From positions 34,715-98,714 of the forward strand of contig CAYLXA010000011.1 in NCBI GenBank assembly GCA_964387845.1: a DNA stretch of 64,000 nt, in the 5' to 3' direction. This DNA is from an uncultured bacterium (GTDB taxonomy: Bacteria > Omnitrophota > Omnitrophia > Omnitrophales > Abzuiibacteriaceae). Shown piece by piece: positions 9,635 through 63,046 of this stretch. The translations under genes and the position numbers were made by a program. Each line of letters opens with the position of its first letter. The first letter of the stretch is position 1. Under the pieces are notes generated by a model, which had not been told where the DNA came from, made no database searches, and worked only from the letters and a program-made list of their open reading frames with translations.

Positions 9635-10471
9635 ATGACTACTAATGTACATTCTTCTCAAGTGAAAGAACTCCGCGATATTACCGGAGCCGGCATGATG
9701 GACTGCAAGCAGGCGCTGCTTGAAACCGGCGGTGATATCGAAAAAGCAAAAGACTATCTCCGGAAAAAAGGCGTTGCCTCAGCCGATAAGCGTGCGTCGA
9801 AAGAAGCTAAAGACGGTATGATTTTTATCCAGAACGACGGAAAAACCGGCGCCATGGCCGAAGTCAATTCCGAAACTGATTTCGTTGCACGGACAGATGA
9901 TTTTCAAAAACTAGGCGCAGCAGCAGTCAAAGCAGTTGCCGAGAAAGGCGAAGCTGCGATTGAGTCGGATGCGATTCAAACACAGGCAAAAGAAGTCAGC
10001 GGAAAAATAGGCGAGAAGATTTCGGTCCGCCGCGCTGTCCGTTTTCAAACGAACGCAGGCCTCGTGGTTTCGTATCGCCACCACAATCAAAAAATCGGTG
10101 TGATGGTTGAGCTTGCATTTTCGAATGCGGCACTGGCCCAAAATGCGGAAGTAGAAAAGCTGGGCAAAGATATCGCCATGCAGTCCGCCGCTCTTCGGGC
10201 TCCGTTTTTGAGCAAAGATCAAGTATCTGCCGAATTTTTAGAGCGTGAAAAATCGATTTTCAGGGATCAAGTCAAGGACAAACCGGCCAATGTGCAGGAT
10301 AAAATTATTGACGGCAAATTACAGAAGCGCTTCGAAGAAGTTTGTCTGCTCGAGCAGAAATCCGTGATTGATCCGGCAAAATCCATCGCGCAATTGGTGG
10401 ATGCGCTCGGGAAAAAACTTGGAAGCCCGATCACCGTAAAACGTTTTCAGCGCTTTGAAATCGGTACTTGA
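9635..10471 (+). CDS. tsf: translation elongation factor Ts
   Basis: N-terminal UBA-like motif VKELRDITGAGMMDCKQAL. Typical rpsB-tsf arrangement. Confidence 0.9.
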   Translation: MTTNVHSSQVKELRDITGAGMMDCKQALLETGGDIEKAKDYLRKKGVASADKRASKEAKDGMIFIQNDGKTGAMAEVNSETDFVARTDDFQKLGAAAVKAVAEKGEAAIESDAIQTQAKEVSGKIGEKISVRRAVRFQTNAGLVVSYRHHNQKIGVMVELAFSNAALAQNAEVEKLGKDIAMQSAALRAPFLSKDQVSAEFLEREKSIFRDQVKDKPANVQDKIIDGKLQKRFEEVCLLEQKSVIDPAKSIAQLVDALGKKLGSPITVKRFQRFEIGT

Positions 10472-10500
10472 TATCATTGAAAATTTCAAAGCGTTTATTA
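10451..10500 (+). terminator. hairpin plus T-rich tract spanning the tsf stop codon; a partial terminator or attenuator between tsf and pyrH
   Basis: Arms CGCTTTGAAAT and ATTTCAAAGCG (11 bp) with a 21-nt loop, followed by TTTATTA. Confidence 0.35.
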
Positions 10501-10615
10501 ATATGAATCAAGTACCGCACTTACTACGCATCGGACCTTATTTGTTTATTAATGAGGTAAGTGCGGCGCTGAATAATCAATAGAACACAGCCTGAAACCA
10601 ACGGAGCCTGTCTCT

Positions 10616-11335
10616 ATGAAAAGTAAAAGAGCCGCGTTTAAGCGCGTTGTTCTGAAAATCAGCGGTGAAGCACTGCAGGGAAGCCAGCATTACGGCATTG
10701 ACCACAAAGTGGTTCTCACCATCGCCAAACAAATCAAAACCGTCAACGATTCCGGCGTTGAAATCGCTTGCGTTATCGGTGCGGGCAATATTTTCCGCGG
10801 CATGCAGGCTGTTCGTCAAGGGATGGACCGCGTTAATGGTGACTACATTGGCATGCTGGCGACGATGATCAATTCGCTTTCACTGCAAGATGCGCTCGAA
10901 AAGTTGGGCGTGCATACCCGCGTGATGACGGCCATCCCGATGGAAAAGCTAGCGGAGCCTTACATTCGCCGCCGCGCACTCCGGCACTTGGAGAAACGGC
11001 GTGTGGTTATTTTCGCCGCCGGAACCGGCAATCCTTATTTCACGACCGACACCGCCGCTGCACTGCGCGCCATTGAAATCAATGCCGATGCGGTATTAAA
11101 AGCAACGCGGGTCGACGGTGTTTATTCGGGCGATCCATTGAAGGACAAAAAGGCTAAAAGATTTGTCCGGCTTAAATATTTAGATGTTCTGAAAAAACAG
11201 CTGCAGGTCATGGATGCGACCGCAGTGTCATTGTGTATGGAAAACAAGCTTCCGATTGTCGTATTTAATTTAAATACGCCGGGCAATATTGAAAAAGTAA
11301 TGCGCGGCGATTCGATCGGAACCGTCGTTAGTTAA
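10616..11335 (+). CDS. pyrH: UMP kinase
   Basis: [20 protein letters not shown] and TGNPYFTTD motifs. GGAG Shine-Dalgarno upstream. Confidence 0.92.
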
Positions 11336-11355
11336 TTCAGCAAGCGAGGATTATT

Positions 11356-11928
11356 ATGCAAACCGCAACTTCTGCCAAATCTGTTCTCGATGAAACCCAG
11401 AACCGCATGCAAAAATCCGTTGATGCGACCCATAGCGAATTCCGCAGTATCCATACGGGCCGTGCTTCCATTGCATTGGTCGAAGCTATTCCGGTTGAGT
11501 GCTACGGATCATCCAAGCCGCTAAAAGGTATCGCGTCCATCACAACGCCGGATGCTAAGACGATCAATATTCAACCTTGGGATCCGTCGATCATTAGCGC
11601 AATCGATAAGGCCATCGTCAAAGCCGAGCTTGGCTTGGTTCCTTCAAATGACGGCCGCGTGGTTCGGATTAAAATTCCGTCACTGACGGCAGAGCGGCGC
11701 AAAGAATTGGATAAAATTATTCGCAAAATCGCAGAAGACGGGCGCGTTTCAATCCGCAACATCCGCCACGAAGCAAATGAAGCGGTGAAGCGGCTTGAAA
11801 AAGCGAAGACGGTCAGTGAAGATGAATCGCGGGGTACTCAGAAAAAAGTTCAGGAGGCCACCGATCGCTTTACGAAAATGGTTGATGAGCTTCTGGCGAA
11901 GAAGGAAGTTGAAATTCAGGAAGTTTAA
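11356..11928 (+). CDS. frr: ribosome recycling factor
   Basis: 190 aa. RTGRASIALVE and PSLTAERRKEL motifs. GAGGA Shine-Dalgarno upstream. Confidence 0.92.
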   Translation: MQTATSAKSVLDETQNRMQKSVDATHSEFRSIHTGRASIALVEAIPVECYGSSKPLKGIASITTPDAKTINIQPWDPSIISAIDKAIVKAELGLVPSNDGRVVRIKIPSLTAERRKELDKIIRKIAEDGRVSIRNIRHEANEAVKRLEKAKTVSEDESRGTQKKVQEATDRFTKMVDELLAKKEVEIQEV

Positions 11929-11933
11929 AGACA

Positions 11934-12066
11934 CAGTATCTAGTATCTCGTATCTAGTATCTAGTTGAACTTATTATTATATGAATAGATATTGTTTCTT
12001 TCACGTTTTCCTTCCGTTCAATTCTTTACTAGATACTAGATACCAGATACAAGATACGAGATACGG
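11934..12066. repeat. long imperfect hairpin built from tandem heptamer repeats: (AGTATCT)x4 on the left arm, (NAGATAC)x5 on the right arm, ~65-nt AT-rich loop
   Basis: Direct reading: cagtatctagtatctcgtatctagtatctag ... ctagatactagataccagatacaagatacgagatac. Located between the frr stop and tRNA-Lys. Confidence 0.8.
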
Positions 12067-13691: not shown

Positions 13692-13835
13692 ATGATCACT
13701 AAAATGTTAAAAGTATTTGTTCTGACTGTTGCCATGACCTCAACTGTGGTAACCGCATCTTTCGCTTTTGACGGGAAAGATGCGCTTTCTGGTGTAGTTG
13801 TCAAATCAACACTTAAAGCAACGACTTGTCTTTGA
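13692..13835 (+). CDS. small secreted peptide, 47 aa: signal peptide plus ~20-aa mature part ending in Cys-Leu
   Basis: Too short to appear in the ORF track. GGAGG Shine-Dalgarno 6 nt upstream of the ATG. MITKMLKVFVLTVAMTSTVVTASFA then FDGKDALSGVVVKSTLKATTCL. The antisense ORF 13613-13804 has no comparable signals. Confidence 0.3.
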   Translation: MITKMLKVFVLTVAMTSTVVTASFAFDGKDALSGVVVKSTLKATTCL

Positions 13836-14476: not shown

Positions 14477-14505
14477 TTGACACTCTACTTTCCTTATGAT
14501 AATTT
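14477..14505 (+). promoter_or_regulatory. strong sigma-70 type promoter upstream of the bactofilin-HTH gene
   Basis: Consensus TTGACA, a 15-17-nt spacer, then an extended -10 tGATAATtt. Confidence 0.5.
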
Positions 14506-14516
14506 AAGCCCACTTT

Positions 14517-14549
14517 TTAAAAATCAAACTCATGTAGTTTGATTTTTAG
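14517..14549. promoter_or_regulatory. near-perfect 14-bp inverted repeat (ttAAAATCAAACT-catgt-AGTTTGATTTTtag); candidate operator or 5'-UTR hairpin
   Basis: Arms match 13 of 14, including a perfect 11-bp core. Positioned between the promoter and the ATG at 14593, directly upstream of two HTH-domain genes. Confidence 0.45.
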
Positions 14550-14592
14550 CGTTAGTTTCCGGACGCTAAATTCCAAAAGGAGGGACTTCAGC

Positions 14593-15111
14593 ATGGCAAA
14601 AAAGCTGGAAGAAAAGATTTTAGACGTTGATGCGAGTATGCAGGGAACGATCACATTTCGTGATCCTGTTAACCTGCGTATTAACGGAAGTTTTGAAGGC
14701 CGTTTGGATGTCCGAGGGAATTTGACCATTGGTGAAAATGCTAACGTGAAAGCCGATATCAGAGGCGATAAAATCTTAGTTGCAGGAAAAGTGACCGGTA
14801 ATATCACGGCGTCTGCCAGTCTGGCGGTTATATCGCCTGCGGTGATTCGCGGCAACATTAAGTCCCCGATTTTCAGTGTTGCTGAAGGTTCCGTTATTGA
14901 AGGTCAAGTATCGATGACAAATTTACAAAATTTAGATGCCAATAGCACGCTGTCGTTGCGCGATTTAGCCCAGTACCTTGAAGTTGAGATGCGCGTCATT
15001 GAAGAGTGGGCGCGTGAGAAAAAAATTCCCGGCCGTCAAGAAAACGGCGAGTGGCGGTTTAATAAAGCCACGATTGATAAATGGGTGCAGGACGAAAAAG
15101 TAAAATTGTAA
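14593..15111 (+). CDS. bactofilin (DUF583 beta-helical polymer-forming domain) fused to a C-terminal excisionase/MerR-type HTH DNA-binding domain
   Basis: GGAGGG Shine-Dalgarno 7 nt before the ATG. Bactofilin repeats (INGSFEGRLDVRGNLTIGENANVKADIRGDKILVAGKVTGNITA...). C-terminal LSLRDLAQYLEVEMRVIEEWAREKKIPGRQENGEWRFNKATIDKWV matches the HTH_17/excisionase-family pattern. Confidence 0.7.
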   Translation: MAKKLEEKILDVDASMQGTITFRDPVNLRINGSFEGRLDVRGNLTIGENANVKADIRGDKILVAGKVTGNITASASLAVISPAVIRGNIKSPIFSVAEGSVIEGQVSMTNLQNLDANSTLSLRDLAQYLEVEMRVIEEWAREKKIPGRQENGEWRFNKATIDKWVQDEKVKL

Positions 15112-15162
15112 AGTTGATCCGATTCTTTCCGATTTTGTTCCACCAAAGATTTTGCATTTGAA

Positions 15163-15456
15163 ATGCTGCTAACCGAAGAAGAAGTCCAGAATTATTTAGG
15201 AGTTGACCGTTCTCATATTGAAAGGTTGATGAAACGCGGGAAACTCACGGCTTTTCGTGTCGGCGGCTCCTATCTCCGATTCCGCAAAGAGGAAGTCATT
15301 GCACTTAAAGCAGGTAAGCGCTTTGTGCCGGCCGAACAAATGGGCCGCAGGAGTTGGCTGGATCGTGCGCGTGATTTTTGGAAGTTTTACAGTTTTTATG
15401 TCCTCTCGTCGATTTTGATTGCACTCGCGGTTCTCCTGATTATCCAATACATCTAA
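15163..15456 (+). CDS. small membrane-anchored protein with an N-terminal excisionase-type HTH domain and a C-terminal TM helix
   Basis: LLTEEEVQNYLGVDRSHIERLMKRGKLTAFRVGGSYLRFRKEEV matches the HTH_17 pattern. C-terminal FYSFYVLSSILIALAVLLIIQYI is a single TM segment. Confidence 0.6.
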   Translation: MLLTEEEVQNYLGVDRSHIERLMKRGKLTAFRVGGSYLRFRKEEVIALKAGKRFVPAEQMGRRSWLDRARDFWKFYSFYVLSSILIALAVLLIIQYI

Positions 15457-15461
15457 TATTC

Positions 15462-15842
15462 ATGACCGTTCCGTTCCAAATTGGCGTTGATATCGTGAGC
15501 GTGCGCCGGATGGAAGAATCCATCAAGCGTCACGGAAAATCCTTTCTCGATAAAGTATTCACGGCCGGCGAGCAATCTTATTGCGAAAAAAAGCGCAATA
15601 AGTATGAAAATTACGCTGCACGGTTTGCTGCCAAAGAAGCAGTGATTAAAGCCAAGGGCGGCGGTGCGGGCCGGATGCGTTTTAAAGATATCGAAGTCAA
15701 ACGAGGCAAGAACGGCAAGCCATTTATTTCGATTACTCCTCAAGTCCGGCGTGAAATGTTCATCAAACCAAAAGCCGAATTTGAGCTGACTATGGCGCAC
15801 GAACGGGAATTTGCGATCGCAACCGTCCTGATGTCAGCCTAG
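15462..15842 (+). CDS. acpS: holo-[acyl-carrier-protein] synthase (4'-phosphopantetheinyl transferase)
   Basis: N-terminal IGVDIVSVRRME and FAAKEAVIKA motifs. ~126 aa typical size. Start at the internal ATG, 6 nt after the upstream stop. Confidence 0.85.
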   Translation: MTVPFQIGVDIVSVRRMEESIKRHGKSFLDKVFTAGEQSYCEKKRNKYENYAARFAAKEAVIKAKGGGAGRMRFKDIEVKRGKNGKPFISITPQVRREMFIKPKAEFELTMAHEREFAIATVLMSA

Positions 15843-15846
15843 CGCT

Positions 15847-16554
15847 ATGCGTTATCTGATCGTTAACGCCGACGATTTTAATCTCACCCAAGGTATTTCC
15901 CGCGCGGTTTTTTGCGCGCATGACCGCGGCATTGTGAATTCCACAAGCGTGATGATTAATTTTCCGCTGTCCTCATATCAAATATCGGGCCTCAGTAAAC
16001 GCCCGGGCCTTAGCGTTGGGCTTCATTTGAATGTCACATCGGGTTCTCCGAAATTCAAAAAGGCAAGCGCATACCTATCCGGCAAATTTGACCCGCATGT
16101 TTTATTCGCTGAATATGAATCACAGATCAAAAAGTTTCAAACAGTGTTTAAAAGGAAGCCGGATCATTTAGATACGCATCATCACATTCATGCATCGCCA
16201 AAAGTTGCGTTGGTCTTATCCAAAATTTCGAGAAAATATAAAATCCCGGCCCGTCGGTCGGCTACGCTTCGAAGCGCAGCGACAACCGATTATTTTTTTG
16301 GGAATTTATCGCCGCAAAAATATTGGACTCACACAAGTTTGCTGACGATTCTTGAAAACTTACCGCAGGGGACGAGCGAAATTATGTGTCATCCCGGTTT
16401 TGTTGATTCCGACCTGCGTTCCAAAAGTTCGTTCTTAAAGGGGCGCGAATGCGAGCGCAAGCTTTTTTCGAAACGATCATGGCGCTTGTTTTTGCGCCGC
16501 CACGGCATTCAACAGGTAAAATTTTCAAGCCTGCTTCCGGGCTCTGTGTTATAA
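15847..16554 (+). CDS. ChbG/YdjC/HpnK-family carbohydrate deacetylase
   Basis: YLIVNADDFNLTQGISRAV, NSTSVM and the HLDTHHHIH metal-binding region, typical of the YdjC family. Confidence 0.75.
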   Translation: MRYLIVNADDFNLTQGISRAVFCAHDRGIVNSTSVMINFPLSSYQISGLSKRPGLSVGLHLNVTSGSPKFKKASAYLSGKFDPHVLFAEYESQIKKFQTVFKRKPDHLDTHHHIHASPKVALVLSKISRKYKIPARRSATLRSAATTDYFFGNLSPQKYWTHTSLLTILENLPQGTSEIMCHPGFVDSDLRSKSSFLKGRECERKLFSKRSWRLFLRRHGIQQVKFSSLLPGSVL

Positions 16555-16564
16555 TACGCGGCTT

Positions 16565-17335
16565 ATGAGAGTCCTGATTACCAATGACGATGGTATTCAC
16601 TCGCCGGGGTTAAGGGCGATTGTGGATGCGATCCACAAAGAAGCCGAATGCCTGGTAGTAGCACCGCACAAGGAAAGGTCGGCGACGGCGCATTCTATTT
16701 CTCTTTATGATGAAATTTGGGTCGAATCGGTTCACATCGGGGACGGGCTAAAAGGATATTCGGTCGAAGGAACGCCGGCTGATTGTGTGAAATTTGCGTT
16801 TGCGGAGCTTTTGAAGAAGAAAGTCGACCTCATTATATCGGGCATTAACCTGGGGTTAAATACGGGTATCAGCGTTTATTATTCAGGGACTGTGTCGGCG
16901 GCGCGTGAAGGATTGATCAACGGCGTTCCGTCGATCGCCATTTCGCAAGGCAAGCAGCAAACGCGCGATTTCGCATATGCCGGGAAGCTCGTATCAAAGT
17001 TGGTGCATGGCTATAAAAATTTACATTTTCCGAAAGATACATTTTTAAATATCAATGTACCTCCCGTCGAATCTCAGCAGGTGAAAGGGATTCGAGTGAC
17101 GAAACAGGCGCATTCACGGTTTGACGAATGGTTTGAGGAAATTAAAAAATCCGGATCTAACGGCCGGAAACCGTATCAAGTCCGCGGCGATATCGAAATT
17201 TTAAGTCCGGACGGCACGAGCGATGAAGAAGCGATTCGAGAAGGTTATGTGTCGATGACGCCACTTCTTTTGGATTCAACGCATTACAAGCAGATGTCCC
17301 ATTTTGAGAAATGGGTGAGGGATAACGGAATTTAG
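16565..17335 (+). CDS. surE: 5'/3'-nucleotidase SurE
   Basis: MRVLITNDDGIHSPGL and GINLGLNTG motifs. Confidence 0.9.
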   Translation: MRVLITNDDGIHSPGLRAIVDAIHKEAECLVVAPHKERSATAHSISLYDEIWVESVHIGDGLKGYSVEGTPADCVKFAFAELLKKKVDLIISGINLGLNTGISVYYSGTVSAAREGLINGVPSIAISQGKQQTRDFAYAGKLVSKLVHGYKNLHFPKDTFLNINVPPVESQQVKGIRVTKQAHSRFDEWFEEIKKSGSNGRKPYQVRGDIEILSPDGTSDEEAIREGYVSMTPLLLDSTHYKQMSHFEKWVRDNGI

Positions 17336-58936: not shown

Positions 58937-61900
58937 ATGAATTCGACCCTTGCTAATCGTTCAGAAACCGGAAGTTTTTCGCGAAGTAAAAACCACCGGC
59001 CCCTCTTTGTTCTTATTTTTCTTTACGCTATGTTTTTCCTGGTTTCGAAACCATCCTTTGCCGACACCATTGTTCCGGGCGGGAATATTTCATCTAACAT
59101 AACCTGGACTTCCGCCGGAAGTCCGTACATTGTTCAGGGTAGTATCACGGTTAGTTCGGGCACTTTAACCATTGAACCGGGTGTTGTCGTAAAAGCAGAG
59201 CCAAATGCAAACGTAGAAATCCGGACTTCCGGTGGAAAACTTTTTGCGGAAGGAACGTTAGAAGAGCCAATTTTGTTTACTTCAAACAGCGCAAATCCTT
59301 CCCCGGGCGAGTGGAAAGGCATTTTCTTTGATGGAGGCACCGCGACCGATTCGTCTCTTAAGCACTGCACAATTGCCTATGCTCAGAATGGAATCCGAAT
59401 TAGTCAAAATGTTTTTATGTTTGTGCAAAACACCACGTTTCAAAACAATTCAAGCGTTGCTGTTTCAGCGCCTACTCTCAAAGAAACCCGTAATTTCGGC
59501 TCTGGAAACACTTATATTGGAAATGGCAGAGATGCAATTGAGTGGACTGCTACCTTAACCGCTACGGTCGATCAAGATATGACACTTGCCAGTCAAGGTG
59601 TCCCGTATATTGCGAATGGGAGTATCAACGTAGCTCGTTTTGTTGGTCTTTCGACTATGACTGTCCAGCCTGGTGTTGAAATCCGATTTAAACCGAATCA
59701 AAATCTAAAATTTGAAGTTGGCGGAGGTGGTTGGCAGGGCAGAGTACTTTTTCAAGGCTCGCAAGCTCAGCCGATCCGTTTAACAGTTGATAGCCAGAAC
59801 CCTACGCCCGGAAGCTGGCAGGGAATTCGGTTTGACACTGGAGCACAGCCAGGTTTTATCCTAGATTATGTCATTTTTGAATATGCCGGCGCCCCCGCTG
59901 TTAGTGTTCCGCAGGATCTTGGTTTTTATACCATCTCCCATTCTACTATTCGTCATTCATCCGGAATCGGCGTATCTTTAAGAGGGAATGGCGCGTTACA
60001 AAATAACATTATAGAAAATAATGGCGGTCAAGGAATTGAAATTTTATCCGGTTCACCATCCATCCTATCCAACACGGTTCAACAAAATGCATCAACGGGT
60101 CTTTTGATGCAATCAAATGCGGGAACTCCATTAATTGATGACAACCATTTTCTGAATAATGGAAGCCGAGCTGCGAACATCTATTCATTAAGGCAAATTC
60201 GCAATATGACTCAGAATAATACTTTTTCCGGAATAACCAATCCAATTTGCCAATGTATTGAATTTATGAATACGGCACCTACTTTGATTAATTATGATAC
60301 GACACTTTATGATTTTACTTACCCTTATGTGTTTAATGGAAGTATCCAGGTTTATCGGGAAGTTCCTCCACATTCAACATTAACCATTCAACCTGGAACC
60401 GAACTTAAATTTAAGCCAGGCCAGAATTTAATCCTCGGAATTGGATATAGACCCAACCAGTATGTGGGCGCTTTAGTTGCTTTAGGCGATGATCAAAATC
60501 CTATTCGTTTTAGTTCTGCTGCTGCAGTGCCGGCACCCGGCGATTGGCAAGGGTTGAAATTGGAAGGATTTATGATTCCCGATCAAATGTCCAATGTGAT
60601 AGTTGAGCATGCCGGAAATGCCGGTATTACCGTATGGGATACGCATCTTGAAATTAACAATTCGACCATCCAAAATAATTCCGGCGATGGTATGCAAATC
60701 GTTGGTTCCGGCCAGCTGGATGTGAAAAACACTTCATTTCTCTCTAACGGATTAAAAGCCATTAATCATACAGGATCTTCCGGCGCGGTACTCGCTCCGC
60801 TTAATTGGTTCGGAAGTTCGAACGAGCCATCCGCACAAGTTTCAGGTAGTGTTCAATATGAACCTTGGCTTATTTCAGCACCAACGACGCCGTTTCAATG
60901 GACAGCGGCCAATCTTTCATCCAAACAGTTTAATCCCGACGAAAGTTCGGCAACATTTCAATTTAGTCATCCGGAAGCTGCCAATTGGATGCTTGAAATT
61001 TTAAATTCAGACCTCAGCCAGGTACTAAAAACGATCAAGGGGCAAGGCCCGAATCCGTCCATTATTGAATGGAATGGAAATGATGATAGTAAAGAATTTT
61101 TGCCGGATGGTATGTATAAGTATCGTTTTAGCGGCTCAAGCCAAATAACCAGCCAACAGGCTGCGCCTGCGTTGGGCAACATTCAATTAAATAATGCGTT
61201 GCCTGCGGCGGAAATTATTTTGCCGACCGCTTCTCAAATTATTCCCGGCCATACAATTGTGCAAATCCAAGGAACTGCTCAAGGAAAGGGTTTCACCAAT
61301 TACACAGTCGAACGTTTTGATACGTTTCAGCAAAACAATTTTGTCCAAATTGCGGCAAGTACTTCTCCTGTTTCGGACGGTGTGCTGGCCAATTGGGATA
61401 CCGGAAATTTAGCCAACCCCATTTTCAAAACTTTGCGTTTAAGCGTTAATAATAATGCTTCTCATACCGCATTTGTTGAAATTCCGGTGACCATTTTTAA
61501 TATCTTTAATATTGCAAGTTCTCAAGGTTTTATTTCACCCAACGGCGATGGCTTGTTTGAATCCACGACAATTTCTGCAAACAGCACTTTAACTGCGGAT
61601 TGGTTGCTCCAAATTAAGAATTCTGTTAATCAAGTTGTTCGAACCGTTAATGCTGCCAATGAATCATTTTTCTCATTCGAATGGAATGGCAAGGACGACA
61701 GCAATGTTTTATTGCCTGACGGTGTTTATACCTATCATTTTACAATCACAGAGCCTGACTCGGGAGTGAATGTGCCTGCACAGCAAGGTCCGAGCGTTAT
61801 TGTCATCGATACAACAGTGCCGCAGCTTGCGATAAGCGATCCACAGATAGATCAGGTAGTTTTTGGGCTTTCATTTCCTGTAATCGGCACCGTGAGTGAT

Positions 61901-63046
61901 TTGAATATTCTTAGTTACAAAATGTTTTATGCAAATGCCGAAAATCCGAACAATTTTATTCAGTTTGCAAATGGTTCTTCAAACGTAAACAACAGTTTGC
62001 TTGGCGTCTGGACAAATTTAATCAATTTGACCAATGGCGGATACATAATCCAACTGCAGGCGACCGATCGAGGCGGCAATACAGCCGAAATTTTTGTGCC
62101 GGTTCAGCTTGACAATATCACCATTACGAATGTTGATCGTGCGCCGCTATTTTTTGATCCGCTCAATAGTGAAACAACCCAGATTTCTTATGCAATTAAC
62201 CATGATGCTTTTATAACGATCAGGATTTTTACCGAGACAAACGGTCAATTGGTTCGAACTTTGGTTAACCAAGCTCCCAAAAAAGCCGGTACCAATTTTG
62301 ACGTTTGGGACGGCCGCAATAACTCCAACCAACCGATTCCTTATGAAGCGTATTATTTCCGAATTGATGCTGAATCTCAAGCCGGAGAAGGCCGTCATGG
62401 TCAATTTGTTGATGTATTTGGCGGGTCGCCCGGGCCTAATGATTTTGAAGTTAATTTGCAAAATCTAGATTTTAATCCTTATCAAAATGAAGAATTGCTC
62501 ATTCAATACCCGGTGCATGCTCCCGGCCGTCAATTGGTGGAAATTCGTCAGGGGAATACCGCGACACGGCTTCGATTAATTGTGGAGAACGAGCCAAAAA
62601 TTCAAGGTTTAAGAACGGACAGATGGGACGGCCGCGATGATAATGGAAATATTTATTCCGGCTCTTATCATCTCTTTTTTGGAATCGCAGTTCCATTTCG
62701 CAGCAAAACCATTATTCTCAAAAACACACTTCCGGCACCTGACAATCTTTTATCAGAACCTTACTTGATCATTCCCGCATACGCTGGAGTGAGCAGCTTG
62801 CAATATGATTTATCCGAAGAATCCGGTGTTACAGTTATCGTGAAGGATTCCTTAGGTAATTATGTCAGAACTTTACTGGATCAAGTGGTTCAAGCAGCGG
62901 GAAATTACTCTGTGCTATGGGACGGAAAAAATGATTTAGGCGAATTTATTTCGGGGACCGGCAATTATTATTTCTACGTTCAAGCGGCACGGTCAGGCTC
63001 AAGCGAATCAGTTCAGGCGATAGGGAATATTCGGGTGCAAAATTGA
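58937..63046 (+). CDS. 1369-aa secreted surface protein: signal peptide, ~650 aa of right-handed parallel beta-helix repeats (pectate-lyase/NosD-like), then five FlgD-Ig-like domains
   Basis: Signal peptide LFVLIFLYAMFFLVSKPSFA. Recurring beta-helix turns (NNSGDG, GNGA, TIQNN). Five modules with the W-x-G-x-D...G-x-Y signature (EWNGNDDSKEFLPDGMYKY, FEWNGKDDSNVLLPDGVYTY, VWDGRNNSNQPIPYEAYYF, RWDGRDDNGNIYSGSYHLF, LWDGKNDLGEFISGTGNYYF). Confidence 0.8.
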   Translation: MNSTLANRSETGSFSRSKNHRPLFVLIFLYAMFFLVSKPSFADTIVPGGNISSNITWTSAGSPYIVQGSITVSSGTLTIEPGVVVKAEPNANVEIRTSGGKLFAEGTLEEPILFTSNSANPSPGEWKGIFFDGGTATDSSLKHCTIAYAQNGIRISQNVFMFVQNTTFQNNSSVAVSAPTLKETRNFGSGNTYIGNGRDAIEWTATLTATVDQDMTLASQGVPYIANGSINVARFVGLSTMTVQPGVEIRFKPNQNLKFEVGGGGWQGRVLFQGSQAQPIRLTVDSQNPTPGSWQGIRFDTGAQPGFILDYVIFEYAGAPAVSVPQDLGFYTISHSTIRHSSGIGVSLRGNGALQNNIIENNGGQGIEILSGSPSILSNTVQQNASTGLLMQSNAGTPLIDDNHFLNNGSRAANIYSLRQIRNMTQNNTFSGITNPICQCIEFMNTAPTLINYDTTLYDFTYPYVFNGSIQVYREVPPHSTLTIQPGTELKFKPGQNLILGIGYRPNQYVGALVALGDDQNPIRFSSAAAVPAPGDWQGLKLEGFMIPDQMSNVIVEHAGNAGITVWDTHLEINNSTIQNNSGDGMQIVGSGQLDVKNTSFLSNGLKAINHTGSSGAVLAPLNWFGSSNEPSAQVSGSVQYEPWLISAPTTPFQWTAANLSSKQFNPDESSATFQFSHPEAANWMLEILNSDLSQVLKTIKGQGPNPSIIEWNGNDDSKEFLPDGMYKYRFSGSSQITSQQAAPALGNIQLNNALPAAEIILPTASQIIPGHTIVQIQGTAQGKGFTNYTVERFDTFQQNNFVQIAASTSPVSDGVLANWDTGNLANPIFKTLRLSVNNNASHTAFVEIPVTIFNIFNIASSQGFISPNGDGLFESTTISANSTLTADWLLQIKNSVNQVVRTVNAANESFFSFEWNGKDDSNVLLPDGVYTYHFTITEPDSGVNVPAQQGPSVIVIDTTVPQLAISDPQIDQVVFGLSFPVIGTVSDLNILSYKMFYANAENPNNFIQFANGSSNVNNSLLGVWTNLINLTNGGYIIQLQATDRGGNTAEIFVPVQLDNITITNVDRAPLFFDPLNSETTQISYAINHDAFITIRIFTETNGQLVRTLVNQAPKKAGTNFDVWDGRNNSNQPIPYEAYYFRIDAESQAGEGRHGQFVDVFGGSPGPNDFEVNLQNLDFNPYQNEELLIQYPVHAPGRQLVEIRQGNTATRLRLIVENEPKIQGLRTDRWDGRDDNGNIYSGSYHLFFGIAVPFRSKTIILKNTLPAPDNLLSEPYLIIPAYAGVSSLQYDLSEESGVTVIVKDSLGNYVRTLLDQVVQAAGNYSVLWDGKNDLGEFISGTGNYYFYVQAARSGSSESVQAIGNIRVQN

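Follow-up and report, generated by a model that had tools for sequence, protein, structure and literature searches.

What would a bactofilin do with a helix-turn-helix (HTH) domain of its own, next to a gene that encodes the same type of domain tied to the membrane? Bactofilins are widespread, few of their partners are known, and their links to the membrane and to DNA are being worked out case by case. The question is raised by two adjacent genes, here called A and B, in a stretch of 64,000 nucleotides from an uncultured bacterium of the phylum Omnitrophota (GenBank assembly GCA_964387845.1, contig CAYLXA010000011.1, positions 34,715 to 98,714), which we call the window. A preliminary description of the locus had proposed an undescribed module for DNA anchoring or nucleoid positioning, placed under a consensus promoter and a palindromic operator. 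Our comparisons point to a module that is real, conserved and undescribed, made of two proteins, specific to Omnitrophota and transcribed from its own predicted promoter. Its function we infer: B would, tentatively, be a membrane adaptor of a polymer formed by A.

The comparisons were based on a scan of one genome per species, in which at least 424 stretches encode a relative of A; this is a lower bound, since the scan required exact peptide words. Eighty of these loci were kept, those with a name belonging to Omnitrophota and the remainder being titled 'uncultured bacterium'. The fusion of a bactofilin with a C-terminal HTH, which the preliminary description had read in gene A, was borne out by profile searches, with both domains above the curated cut-offs. 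Bactofilin (PF04519) matched residues 9-106 (E-value 1.3e-21, 77.1 bits against a cut-off of 27.9), covering profile positions 2-97 of 98, that is, the full domain, and HTH_17 (PF12728) matched residues 120-167 (E-value 1.5e-8, 35.2 bits, cut-off 27). With the excisionase model TIGR01764, A scored 25.6 bits, under the cut-off of 28.8. The AlphaFold2 model of A (mean predicted local distance difference test score, pLDDT, of 83.6) consists of a beta-helix at residues 16-108, with pLDDT of 86-97 in its core, a linker of low confidence, and a winged helix at residues 119-171. Its structural matches were BacA, TtBac, BldC and RacA, with target template modelling scores (TM-scores) of 0.89 against TtBac (6rib) and 0.83 against BacA (2n3d), and the beta-helix superposes on both at 1.6-2.0 Å over about 101 residues. 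At the positions aligned with the polymerisation residues F130 of BacA and F105 of TtBac, A has Ile/Leu, hydrophobic but not Phe. The bactofilin core is unusually conserved, with a mean pairwise identity of 73% over the 80 loci. By profile and by fold, A belongs to the bactofilin family, and it departs from it in the N-terminal tail and in the fused domain.

Canonical bactofilins reach the membrane via an N-terminal peptide, e.g., MFSKQAKS, in which F2 is essential, and the membrane binding of BacA needs this residue (PMC12448750). Such a peptide is typical of bactofilins, not universal. The tail of A reads MAKK...EE (MAKK/MANN), and positions 2 and 3 are free of F, W, L and I in all 80 orthologues, so that, judged from the alignments, the canonical MFSK-like membrane-targeting peptide is missing from A.

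Gene B had been described as the same HTH type with a single membrane anchor, and this reading also stood. HTH_17 matched its residues 2-51 (E-value 8.8e-11, 42.3 bits against 27), TIGR01764 scored 38.8 bits, above its cut-off, and the model ends in a C-terminal transmembrane helix. The BldC family model NF033787 gave 30.3 bits with B, below its cut-off of 77, and did not match A. BldC is the closest solved relative of B: in the Protein Data Bank it was matched by the B sequence with an E-value of 3e-5, and the winged helices share 42-45% identity with target TM-scores of 0.76-0.82. In the AlphaFold2 model, a winged helix (residues 2-49) is followed by a disordered linker and a single long helix (residues 65-96) with the hydrophobic stretch FYSFYVLSSILIALAVLLIIQYI at its end; the protein is closed by 23 hydrophobic residues. 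The architecture is shared by the 80 B orthologues, all with the winged helix, a basic linker, the motif DFW(R/K)F(N/Y)xFY and the C-terminal transmembrane helix, past which only 0-8 residues are found. As a small membrane protein with a tail anchor, B would have its BldC-like winged helix facing the cytoplasm. BLASTP detected no similarity between the winged helices of A and B, so the two domains are not the product of a recent duplication.

The conservation of the pair as neighbours, also anticipated in the preliminary description, extends well beyond the closest genomes. B follows A directly in 79 of the 79 loci with downstream DNA, with B identities of 33-63% and a gap of 75 nucleotides (nt) in the median, down to an overlap of 4 nt. 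The genes acpS and ydjC usually come next; this order is kept in most loci and is lost in divergent clades that retain A and B. In three of these clades every flanking gene differs and the architecture of B is the same, the orders being TsaD, A, B, SNase-TilS (L088), A, B, purE-lipase (L090), and SPOR, TPR-PDZ, A, B (L091). The permanence of B after A despite the changed neighbours strongly argues for a joint function of A and B, the link to acpS being secondary.

Two kinds of divergent fusions were found with other arrangements. The most divergent ones, P0312 and P0304 (L087 290-5567 and L093 290-5567), have no B neighbour, and their N-terminus, MKFFSQKK, resembles the canonical membrane-targeting peptide. 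They stand at the end of a cluster with a gene for an actin-like Volactin (PF25216), another for a 465-residue ParA/MinD-like ATPase with AMPK1_CBM, and three genes without Pfam match, a set that may have a cytoskeletal or positioning role of its own. In the fusion cluster P0194, a hydrophobic N-terminal segment, MKRHVVAALIVAMT (Kyte-Doolittle 2.1), precedes the bactofilin core, and these proteins appear to be anchored directly by their own transmembrane or signal segment.

Whether the winged helices contact DNA was approached through BldC, a protein without dimerisation domain that binds 9-bp direct repeats head-to-tail, not palindromes, with Arg30 and Lys26 reading bases and Thr27, Thr29, Lys33 and Trp31 on phosphates. 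Its contact positions were mapped onto 80 orthologues each of A and B, comparing the DNA-contact residues K26, T27, T29, R30, K33, H46, R47 and R48. At the base-reading Arg30, B has K in 39, Q in 12 and R in 11 orthologues, and A has E/D in 76/80. The phosphate-contacting Thr29 is replaced by E in 63/80 copies of B and 76/80 of A, and the other base reader, Lys26, is variable in B and K/R in 68/80 copies of A. B keeps K/R at Arg41 in 80/80, R at the wing residue Arg48 in 80/80 and R at Arg50 in 74/80, where A shows, respectively, F/Q/Y (variable), V, I, K or R, and S/T/N (variable). The remaining wing residue, Arg47, is I, L or V in B and W in 74/80 copies of A. Of the BldC residues for DNA contact, B appears to retain a part, and A to have lost most.

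The charge of the domain follows the same direction, with a mean net value of -2.45 for the winged helix of A (range -7 to 0, 80 orthologues) versus +6 for BldC. The A profile reaches RacA weakly (E-value 0.054), and there the motif EEW of A is aligned under QRW of RacA, whose arginine is the base-reading residue. Net acidic and with Glu/Asp at the key arginine position, the winged helix of A probably does not read DNA in the standard way, and binding of A to DNA through it seems unlikely on these alignments. The claim that the bactofilin is itself a DNA binder was upheld as to the HTH fold and became doubtful as to the activity. The domain has a mean pairwise identity of 63%, exposed acidic residues E130, E132, E137 and E138 included, and such a conserved acidic surface implies a conserved partner; on a DNA-binding fold, it points to a basic partner rather than to DNA. 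Neither A nor B showed a MerR-type dimerisation coiled coil or an effector-binding domain, either in Pfam searches or in the AlphaFold2 models, and their likeness to classical MerR regulators is confined to the winged helix. The description of both as dimeric HTH proteins is therefore not supported, the relative BldC binding direct repeats. The structural neighbours of the two winged helices included RacA (5i44), the centromere binder pSK1 Par (8csh), BldC and RdfS.

The co-divergence of both proteins was analyzed with pairwise distances from 67 genomes, controlling for the signal in common with AcpS and YdjC. Between the two winged helices, the partial correlation was 0.44 after this control, and 0.40 when the bactofilin core of A and the transmembrane part of B were also controlled. 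Values for the remaining domain pairs went from -0.01 to 0.24, with 0.21 for the two domains of A and 0.19 for the two parts of B. The higher value of the winged-helix pair hints, modestly, at a constraint acting on both domains, which could be a direct contact or a common ligand.

The reading that we favour, tentatively and somewhat short of an even chance, is that B is a dedicated tail-anchored membrane adaptor of a polymer of A, the two proteins being coupled via their winged helices and any DNA contact coming from B. A would polymerise through its bactofilin core, and the polymer would display arrays of acidic winged helices on flexible C-terminal linkers. These would be held by the winged helix or by the basic linker of B, and the scaffold would thereby be kept at the membrane. 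The HTH domains would act mainly as protein-protein couplers, as in RodZ-MreB and BacR-bactofilins, and B, which keeps wing arginines that A does not, may additionally touch DNA. RodZ, as van den Ent et al. are said to have reported in EMBO J in 2010, is membrane-anchored, and its cytoplasmic HTH binds MreB, not DNA. In Bacillus subtilis, the HTH protein BacR (YhbD) is encoded beside bactofilin genes and regulates that operon, and its binding to the bactofilins BacE/BacF leads to lower DNA binding and to its recruitment to the membrane (PMC13649987). PbpC, a bitopic membrane protein, uses a cytoplasmic peptide to dock on the bactofilin polymer (PMC12448750). Given these precedents, it is an established design that a cytoskeletal polymer is held by the HTH of a membrane protein.

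Several observations weigh against this adaptor reading. The winged helix of B is not very basic across the family, with a mean net charge of only +0.14 over orthologues (about +5 in the window copy), and conservation within it is lowest in the recognition helix. In A, the winged helix is not devoid of basic contacts, with K/R at the K26 equivalent in 68/80 and at position 123 in 78/80, and Arg30 is matched by R/K in about 4 of 21 divergent fusion clusters. The tail of P0181, a divergent fusion, is MFKRKPK and resembles a membrane-targeting peptide, and yet P0181 has a B neighbour; B is consequently not a simple replacement for that peptide, and its role as a plain substitute for it is weakened. 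The mirror-tree signal is modest and could be produced by a shared ligand such as DNA or by residual phylogeny. Residue covariation between A and B (mutual information with average product correction, effective sequence number of 51) revealed no specific pairs and no domain enrichment, and the top covarying pairs were clade markers.

The features of the locus are collected in Table 1. The consensus promoter of the preliminary description was right in its -35 element, found at the place indicated; its -10 is an extended -10 and not TATAAT, and a generic TATAAT promoter scan did not call it. TTGACA/TTTACA-like hexamers and similar promoter elements are found upstream of the gene in most of 77 loci, and an AAGGAG(G/A) ribosome-binding site in nearly all of them. 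In the three close relatives, whose A orthologues are 90% (L081), about 89% (L084) and 81% (L082) identical in protein, both promoter elements and the ribosome-binding site can be aligned with those of the window, and the -10 block TG(A/T)TAA(T/C)TTA is kept.

Table 1. Features of the A-B locus and adjoining genes (window positions)
Feature	Position	Strand	Basis and remarks
-35 element TTGACA of the operon promoter	14477..14482	+	Sequence; CTTGAC kept in L081, L082, L084
Extended -10 element TGATAATTT, 17-nt spacer from -35	14497..14505	+	Sequence; relatives
Perfect 13+13 bp palindrome, 5-nt spacer, in predicted 5' untranslated region; lineage-specific	14518..14548	.	Repeat search
Second, shorter stem-loop (TTAGCGT...ACGCTAA) in 5' untranslated region	14546..14569	+	Repeat search, RNA fold
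Ribosome-binding site AAAGGAGGG, 8 nt 5' of the gene A ATG	14576..14584	+	Sequence
Gene A, bactofilin-winged-helix fusion, 172 residues	14593..15111	+	Pfam, AlphaFold2 model, structure matches
Gene A: short charged N-terminal tail		+	Sequence
Gene A: bactofilin core, residues 9-106	14617-14910	+	Pfam
Gene A: variable linker		+	AlphaFold2 model
Gene A: HTH_17, residues 120-167	14950-15093	+	Pfam
Gene B, tail-anchored BldC-like winged-helix protein, 97 residues	15163..15456	+	Pfam, NCBIfam, BldC match, AlphaFold2, 80-orthologue alignment
Gene B: HTH_17, residues 2-51	15166-15315	+	Pfam
Gene B: basic linker		+	Alignment
Gene B: conserved DFW(R/K)F(N/Y)xFY motif		+	Alignment, model
Gene B: transmembrane helix, residues ~75-97	15385-15453	+	Alignment, model
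acpS	15462-15842	+	Pfam, NCBIfam; context, outside core pair
ydjC-like deacetylase	15847-16554	+	Pfam, NCBIfam; context, outside core pair
surE	16565-17335	+	Pfam, NCBIfam; context, outside core pair

The palindrome had been described as a near-perfect one of 14 bp and as the obvious operator candidate for the HTH proteins. It is present, with two arms of 13 nt (14518-14530 and 14536-14548) that are 100% complementary and a mismatched 14th pair (14517/14549), and it is unique in the window, where 100 window shuffles gave 0 matches at up to 3 mismatches. As a conserved operator it was rejected. It is absent upstream of the A orthologues of L081, L084 and L082, which keep promoter and ribosome-binding site, it has no second copy in the window, and no upstream structure is shared. 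The winged helices are near-invariant in these close relatives, where a cognate operator should have been kept, yet the palindrome is absent. The upstream comparisons (77 loci and the close relatives) revealed no conserved DNA motif or repeat adjoining the A-B genes either. In the three relatives, the stretch between the -10 and the ribosome-binding site is unlike in sequence and its length is off by tens of bases, and the second stem-loop is not kept. The closest relative, L081, carries in place of the palindrome region a tandem direct repeat, CCCAGATTTG / CCCCAGATTTGG (1135-1160), and L082 a 10-bp palindrome, GCTTGCAAGC, at the same place as that of the window; this segment seems to turn over fast, with a different small repeat per lineage. 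A metagenome search for exact matches to the palindrome arms found only three unrelated AT-rich contigs (L094 4474-4502, L095 867-895 and L096 2919-2947). There, the same 12-nt arms are flanked by A and T runs and resemble bidirectional intrinsic terminators, one of them beside a probable tRNA gene; otherwise these sites are unlike the window.

The main alternative to an adaptor is the DNA-anchoring or nucleoid-positioning module of the preliminary description, in which both winged helices would bind DNA, the A polymer would coat or gather the chromosome by avidity, and B would tie DNA to the membrane, the two together tethering or organising the nucleoid in a way comparable to RacA-DivIVA, Noc and BacNOP-PadC-ParB. 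Both domains have the MerR/excisionase winged-helix fold, with the DNA organisers RacA, pSK1 Par, BldC and RdfS among their neighbours, RacA being also the protein weakly reached by the A profile. B keeps its wing arginines and has K/R at the Arg30 position in 50/80 orthologues, and A keeps K/R at the K26 equivalent in most orthologues. Myxococcus bactofilins organise the ParABS segregation system (PMC5703909), one divergent fusion clade adjoins genes for a ParA-like ATPase and an actin-like protein, and a shared DNA ligand would also produce the co-divergence of the winged helices. Against these points stand the net acidic winged helix of A, with acidic residues at the base-reading Arg and Glu at the phosphate-contact position in 76/80, the recognition helix of B, whose low conservation speaks against a conserved specific DNA site, and the lack of a conserved DNA motif or repeat seen beside the genes. 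This role is no longer the best-supported reading, and we regard it as unlikely, though far from negligible. Rather more improbable is a three-way tether of membrane, cytoskeleton and chromosome, a hard-wired BacR-type partner switch specific to Omnitrophota in which the winged helix of B would have two possible ligands, DNA and the acidic winged helices of A, arrayed on the polymer and mimicking DNA, so that polymer assembly would decide whether the chromosome or the scaffold stays at the membrane. If true, it would be a new way in which very small cells link the attachment of the nucleoid to the state of their cytoskeleton.

A BacR-type switch could also act on the genes themselves, one or both HTH domains repressing or activating their own promoter and incorporation into polymer or membrane withdrawing the regulator; expression would then track the state of the polymer, and the palindrome would be an operator in the window lineage only. 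The B. subtilis regulator of the adjacent bactofilin operon is a precedent, a conserved promoter of the module's own lies just upstream, and the palindrome lies at about +6 to +37 of the predicted start, where a bound protein would block transcription. This autoregulation is nevertheless the most doubtful of the readings, given that the palindrome and the surrounding stretch are not kept where the winged helices are near-invariant, that winged helices of the BldC type read direct repeats and neither protein has a dimerisation domain, that DUF4004 (PF13171, the BacR family) matched neither A nor B at E-values up to 0.1, and that a protein fixed by a transmembrane helix cannot leave the membrane. 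For the palindrome alone, we see about even chances that it acts at the RNA level, as a 5' stem-loop by which the operon mRNA is stabilised or attenuated in the window lineage only, and is unrelated to A or B. Located about 6-37 nt past the transcription start predicted from the sequence, downstream of the -10, it would be transcribed. The leader RNA folds (-23.3 kcal/mol, z -2.6) into two adjacent hairpins, the first being the palindrome, and positions -80 to -15 have in the window a z of -4.1, the lowest among the 77 loci. No general folding tendency was found upstream across these loci (mean z -0.19), a few of which have unrelated hairpins at the same place, and the same arms form terminator-like hairpins in the unrelated AT-rich contigs. 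The stem, on the other side, has only 2 G-C pairs in 13, no known RNA element was recognised, the Rfam search of the untranslated region matching no family, the lack of conservation leaves no compensatory changes to be seen, and the start is itself inferred. An RNA hairpin or a site for an unrelated factor is the more economical reading, and we consider the palindrome more likely a lineage-specific 5' untranslated feature (an RNA hairpin or a strain-specific site) than the conserved operator of the module. An RNA-level or strain-specific element, which we rate at evens, is likelier than an operator for A or B.

The genes around the pair in the window belong to the core housekeeping set. Before it stand rpsB, tsf and pyrH, tRNA-Lys and tRNA-Glu, and the genes for a GT87 glycosyltransferase and a PAP2 phosphatase; after it come acpS, the ydjC-like deacetylase gene and surE, tRNA-Ala and tRNA-Leu, and leuS. 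B, acpS, ydjC and surE are separated by gaps of 5, 4 and 10 nt, without a predicted terminator in between, and the three downstream genes probably form one operon with A and B. A mobile-element excisionase was rejected on this context, with housekeeping neighbours and no integrase beside the pair in the window. The MADS defence protein MAD1 was rejected as well, with 42 bits for A and 21.9 bits for B against a cut-off of 80 and the core-genome context; PADLOC gave weak matches only, confined to the HTH. A role of the module as FtsZ substitute is unlikely, since Omnitrophota keep their dcw genes (PMC12283558).

In a large protein collection, A has 1336 homologues, the best 120 of which all have both domains, with 60-92% identity; those with a name belong to Candidatus Omnitrophica or Omnitrophota. 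Their public annotations are 'polymer-forming cytoskeletal protein', 'excisionase family DNA binding protein' or 'hypothetical' only. Among 1.84 billion representatives at 50% identity, the profile search detected 18,870 bactofilins, only 32 of them at E-values of 1e-30 or below, and about 22 full-length fusions are among the representatives listed. No natural A-B fusion protein was seen among these representatives, P0238 resembling a chimeric or truncated gene call. The bactofilin-HTH fusion is, according to these searches, a compact family confined to one lineage, Omnitrophota. The pair was also found to be undescribed, as had been supposed: full-text searches of one literature library returned no description of a bactofilin-HTH fusion or of its presence in Omnitrophota, and the literature that names both bactofilin and helix-turn-helix concerns, as far as mostly titles and abstracts tell, separate proteins.

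Other parts of the window and of its relatives deserve mention. Between the GT87 and PAP2 genes, an open reading frame (ORF) of 47-48 codons (13692-13835, + strand) starts with MITKMLKVFVLTVAMTSTVVTASF, which resembles a signal peptide, and its counterparts are called as genes in L081 (339-482), L082 (5576-5722) and L084 (1527-1670); it may encode a conserved small secreted or membrane peptide. An ORF of 1369 residues (58937-63046, + strand), with a right-handed beta-helix (Beta_helix, NosD), CHU_C (a type IX secretion signal) and two FlgD_ig domains, probably encodes a large secreted or surface protein. In another of 576 residues (739-2469, + strand), the last 110 or so match the universal stress protein, and the first 450 had no Pfam match at an E-value of 1e-5. 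Just downstream of surE, L082 has a serine recombinase (Recombinase and Zn_ribbon_recom, 10368-12029, - strand) where the window has two tRNA genes and leuS, which suggests a mobile-element insertion near a tRNA site in that lineage.

The interest of the module lies in a bactofilin with a folded accessory domain that always travels, the divergent clade of P0312 and P0304 excepted, with a small membrane protein of the same fold. With A in at least 424 species representatives of an uncultivated phylum, it offers a clean two-component test system. If the HTH domains couple A and B, this would be a further instance, after RodZ and BacR, in which a DNA-binding fold was reused for linking a cytoskeletal polymer to the membrane, and a route of membrane attachment without the canonical targeting peptide. 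If they bind DNA instead, the bactofilin would have its DNA-binding domain built in, unlike the indirect link of Myxococcus. Either outcome would assign a function to a protein pair of many Omnitrophota genomes.

Compared with known systems, A is like the canonical bactofilins BacA of Caulobacter and TtBac of Thermus in its full PF04519 core, its beta-helix and the hydrophobic polymerisation position, whereas these have a disordered C-terminal tail in place of the folded winged helix, and the hydrophobic residue of their MFSK-type peptide is missing in A. B shares with BldC of Streptomyces, the founder of the BldC family of MerR-like winged helices, the winged helix, the wing arginines and the absence of a coiled-coil dimerisation domain; BldC is a soluble transcription factor of 68 residues, and B has a transmembrane tail, a variable recognition helix and Glu at the Thr29 equivalent. 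In the BacNOP-PadC-ParABS system of Myxococcus xanthus, a bactofilin scaffold is also tied to chromosome organisation (PMC5703909), but its link to DNA is indirect via PadC, ParA and ParB, with neither a fused HTH nor a membrane-anchored HTH partner. The chromosome anchor RacA of Bacillus and pSK1 Par have, like A and B, a MerR-like winged helix, joined in their case to a self-associating scaffold that positions DNA; that scaffold is a coiled coil versus the bactofilin in A, and the arginine of the RacA QRW is Glu in the EEW of A. BacR resembles the pair in the genetic linkage of an HTH to bactofilin genes, but it is a soluble DUF4004 protein of about 210 residues that dissociates from the membrane, whereas in the A-B pair the bactofilin itself carries one HTH and the second sits on a permanent membrane anchor, and the phyla differ. 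RodZ has an XRE-type HTH, a central transmembrane helix, a periplasmic domain and an actin homologue as partner, in contrast to B, an HTH_17 protein whose transmembrane helix is terminal and which has no periplasmic part. No homology between the two systems is shown; the logic proposed for B and A is nonetheless the same as that of RodZ-MreB, a membrane-anchored HTH linking a polymer to the membrane.

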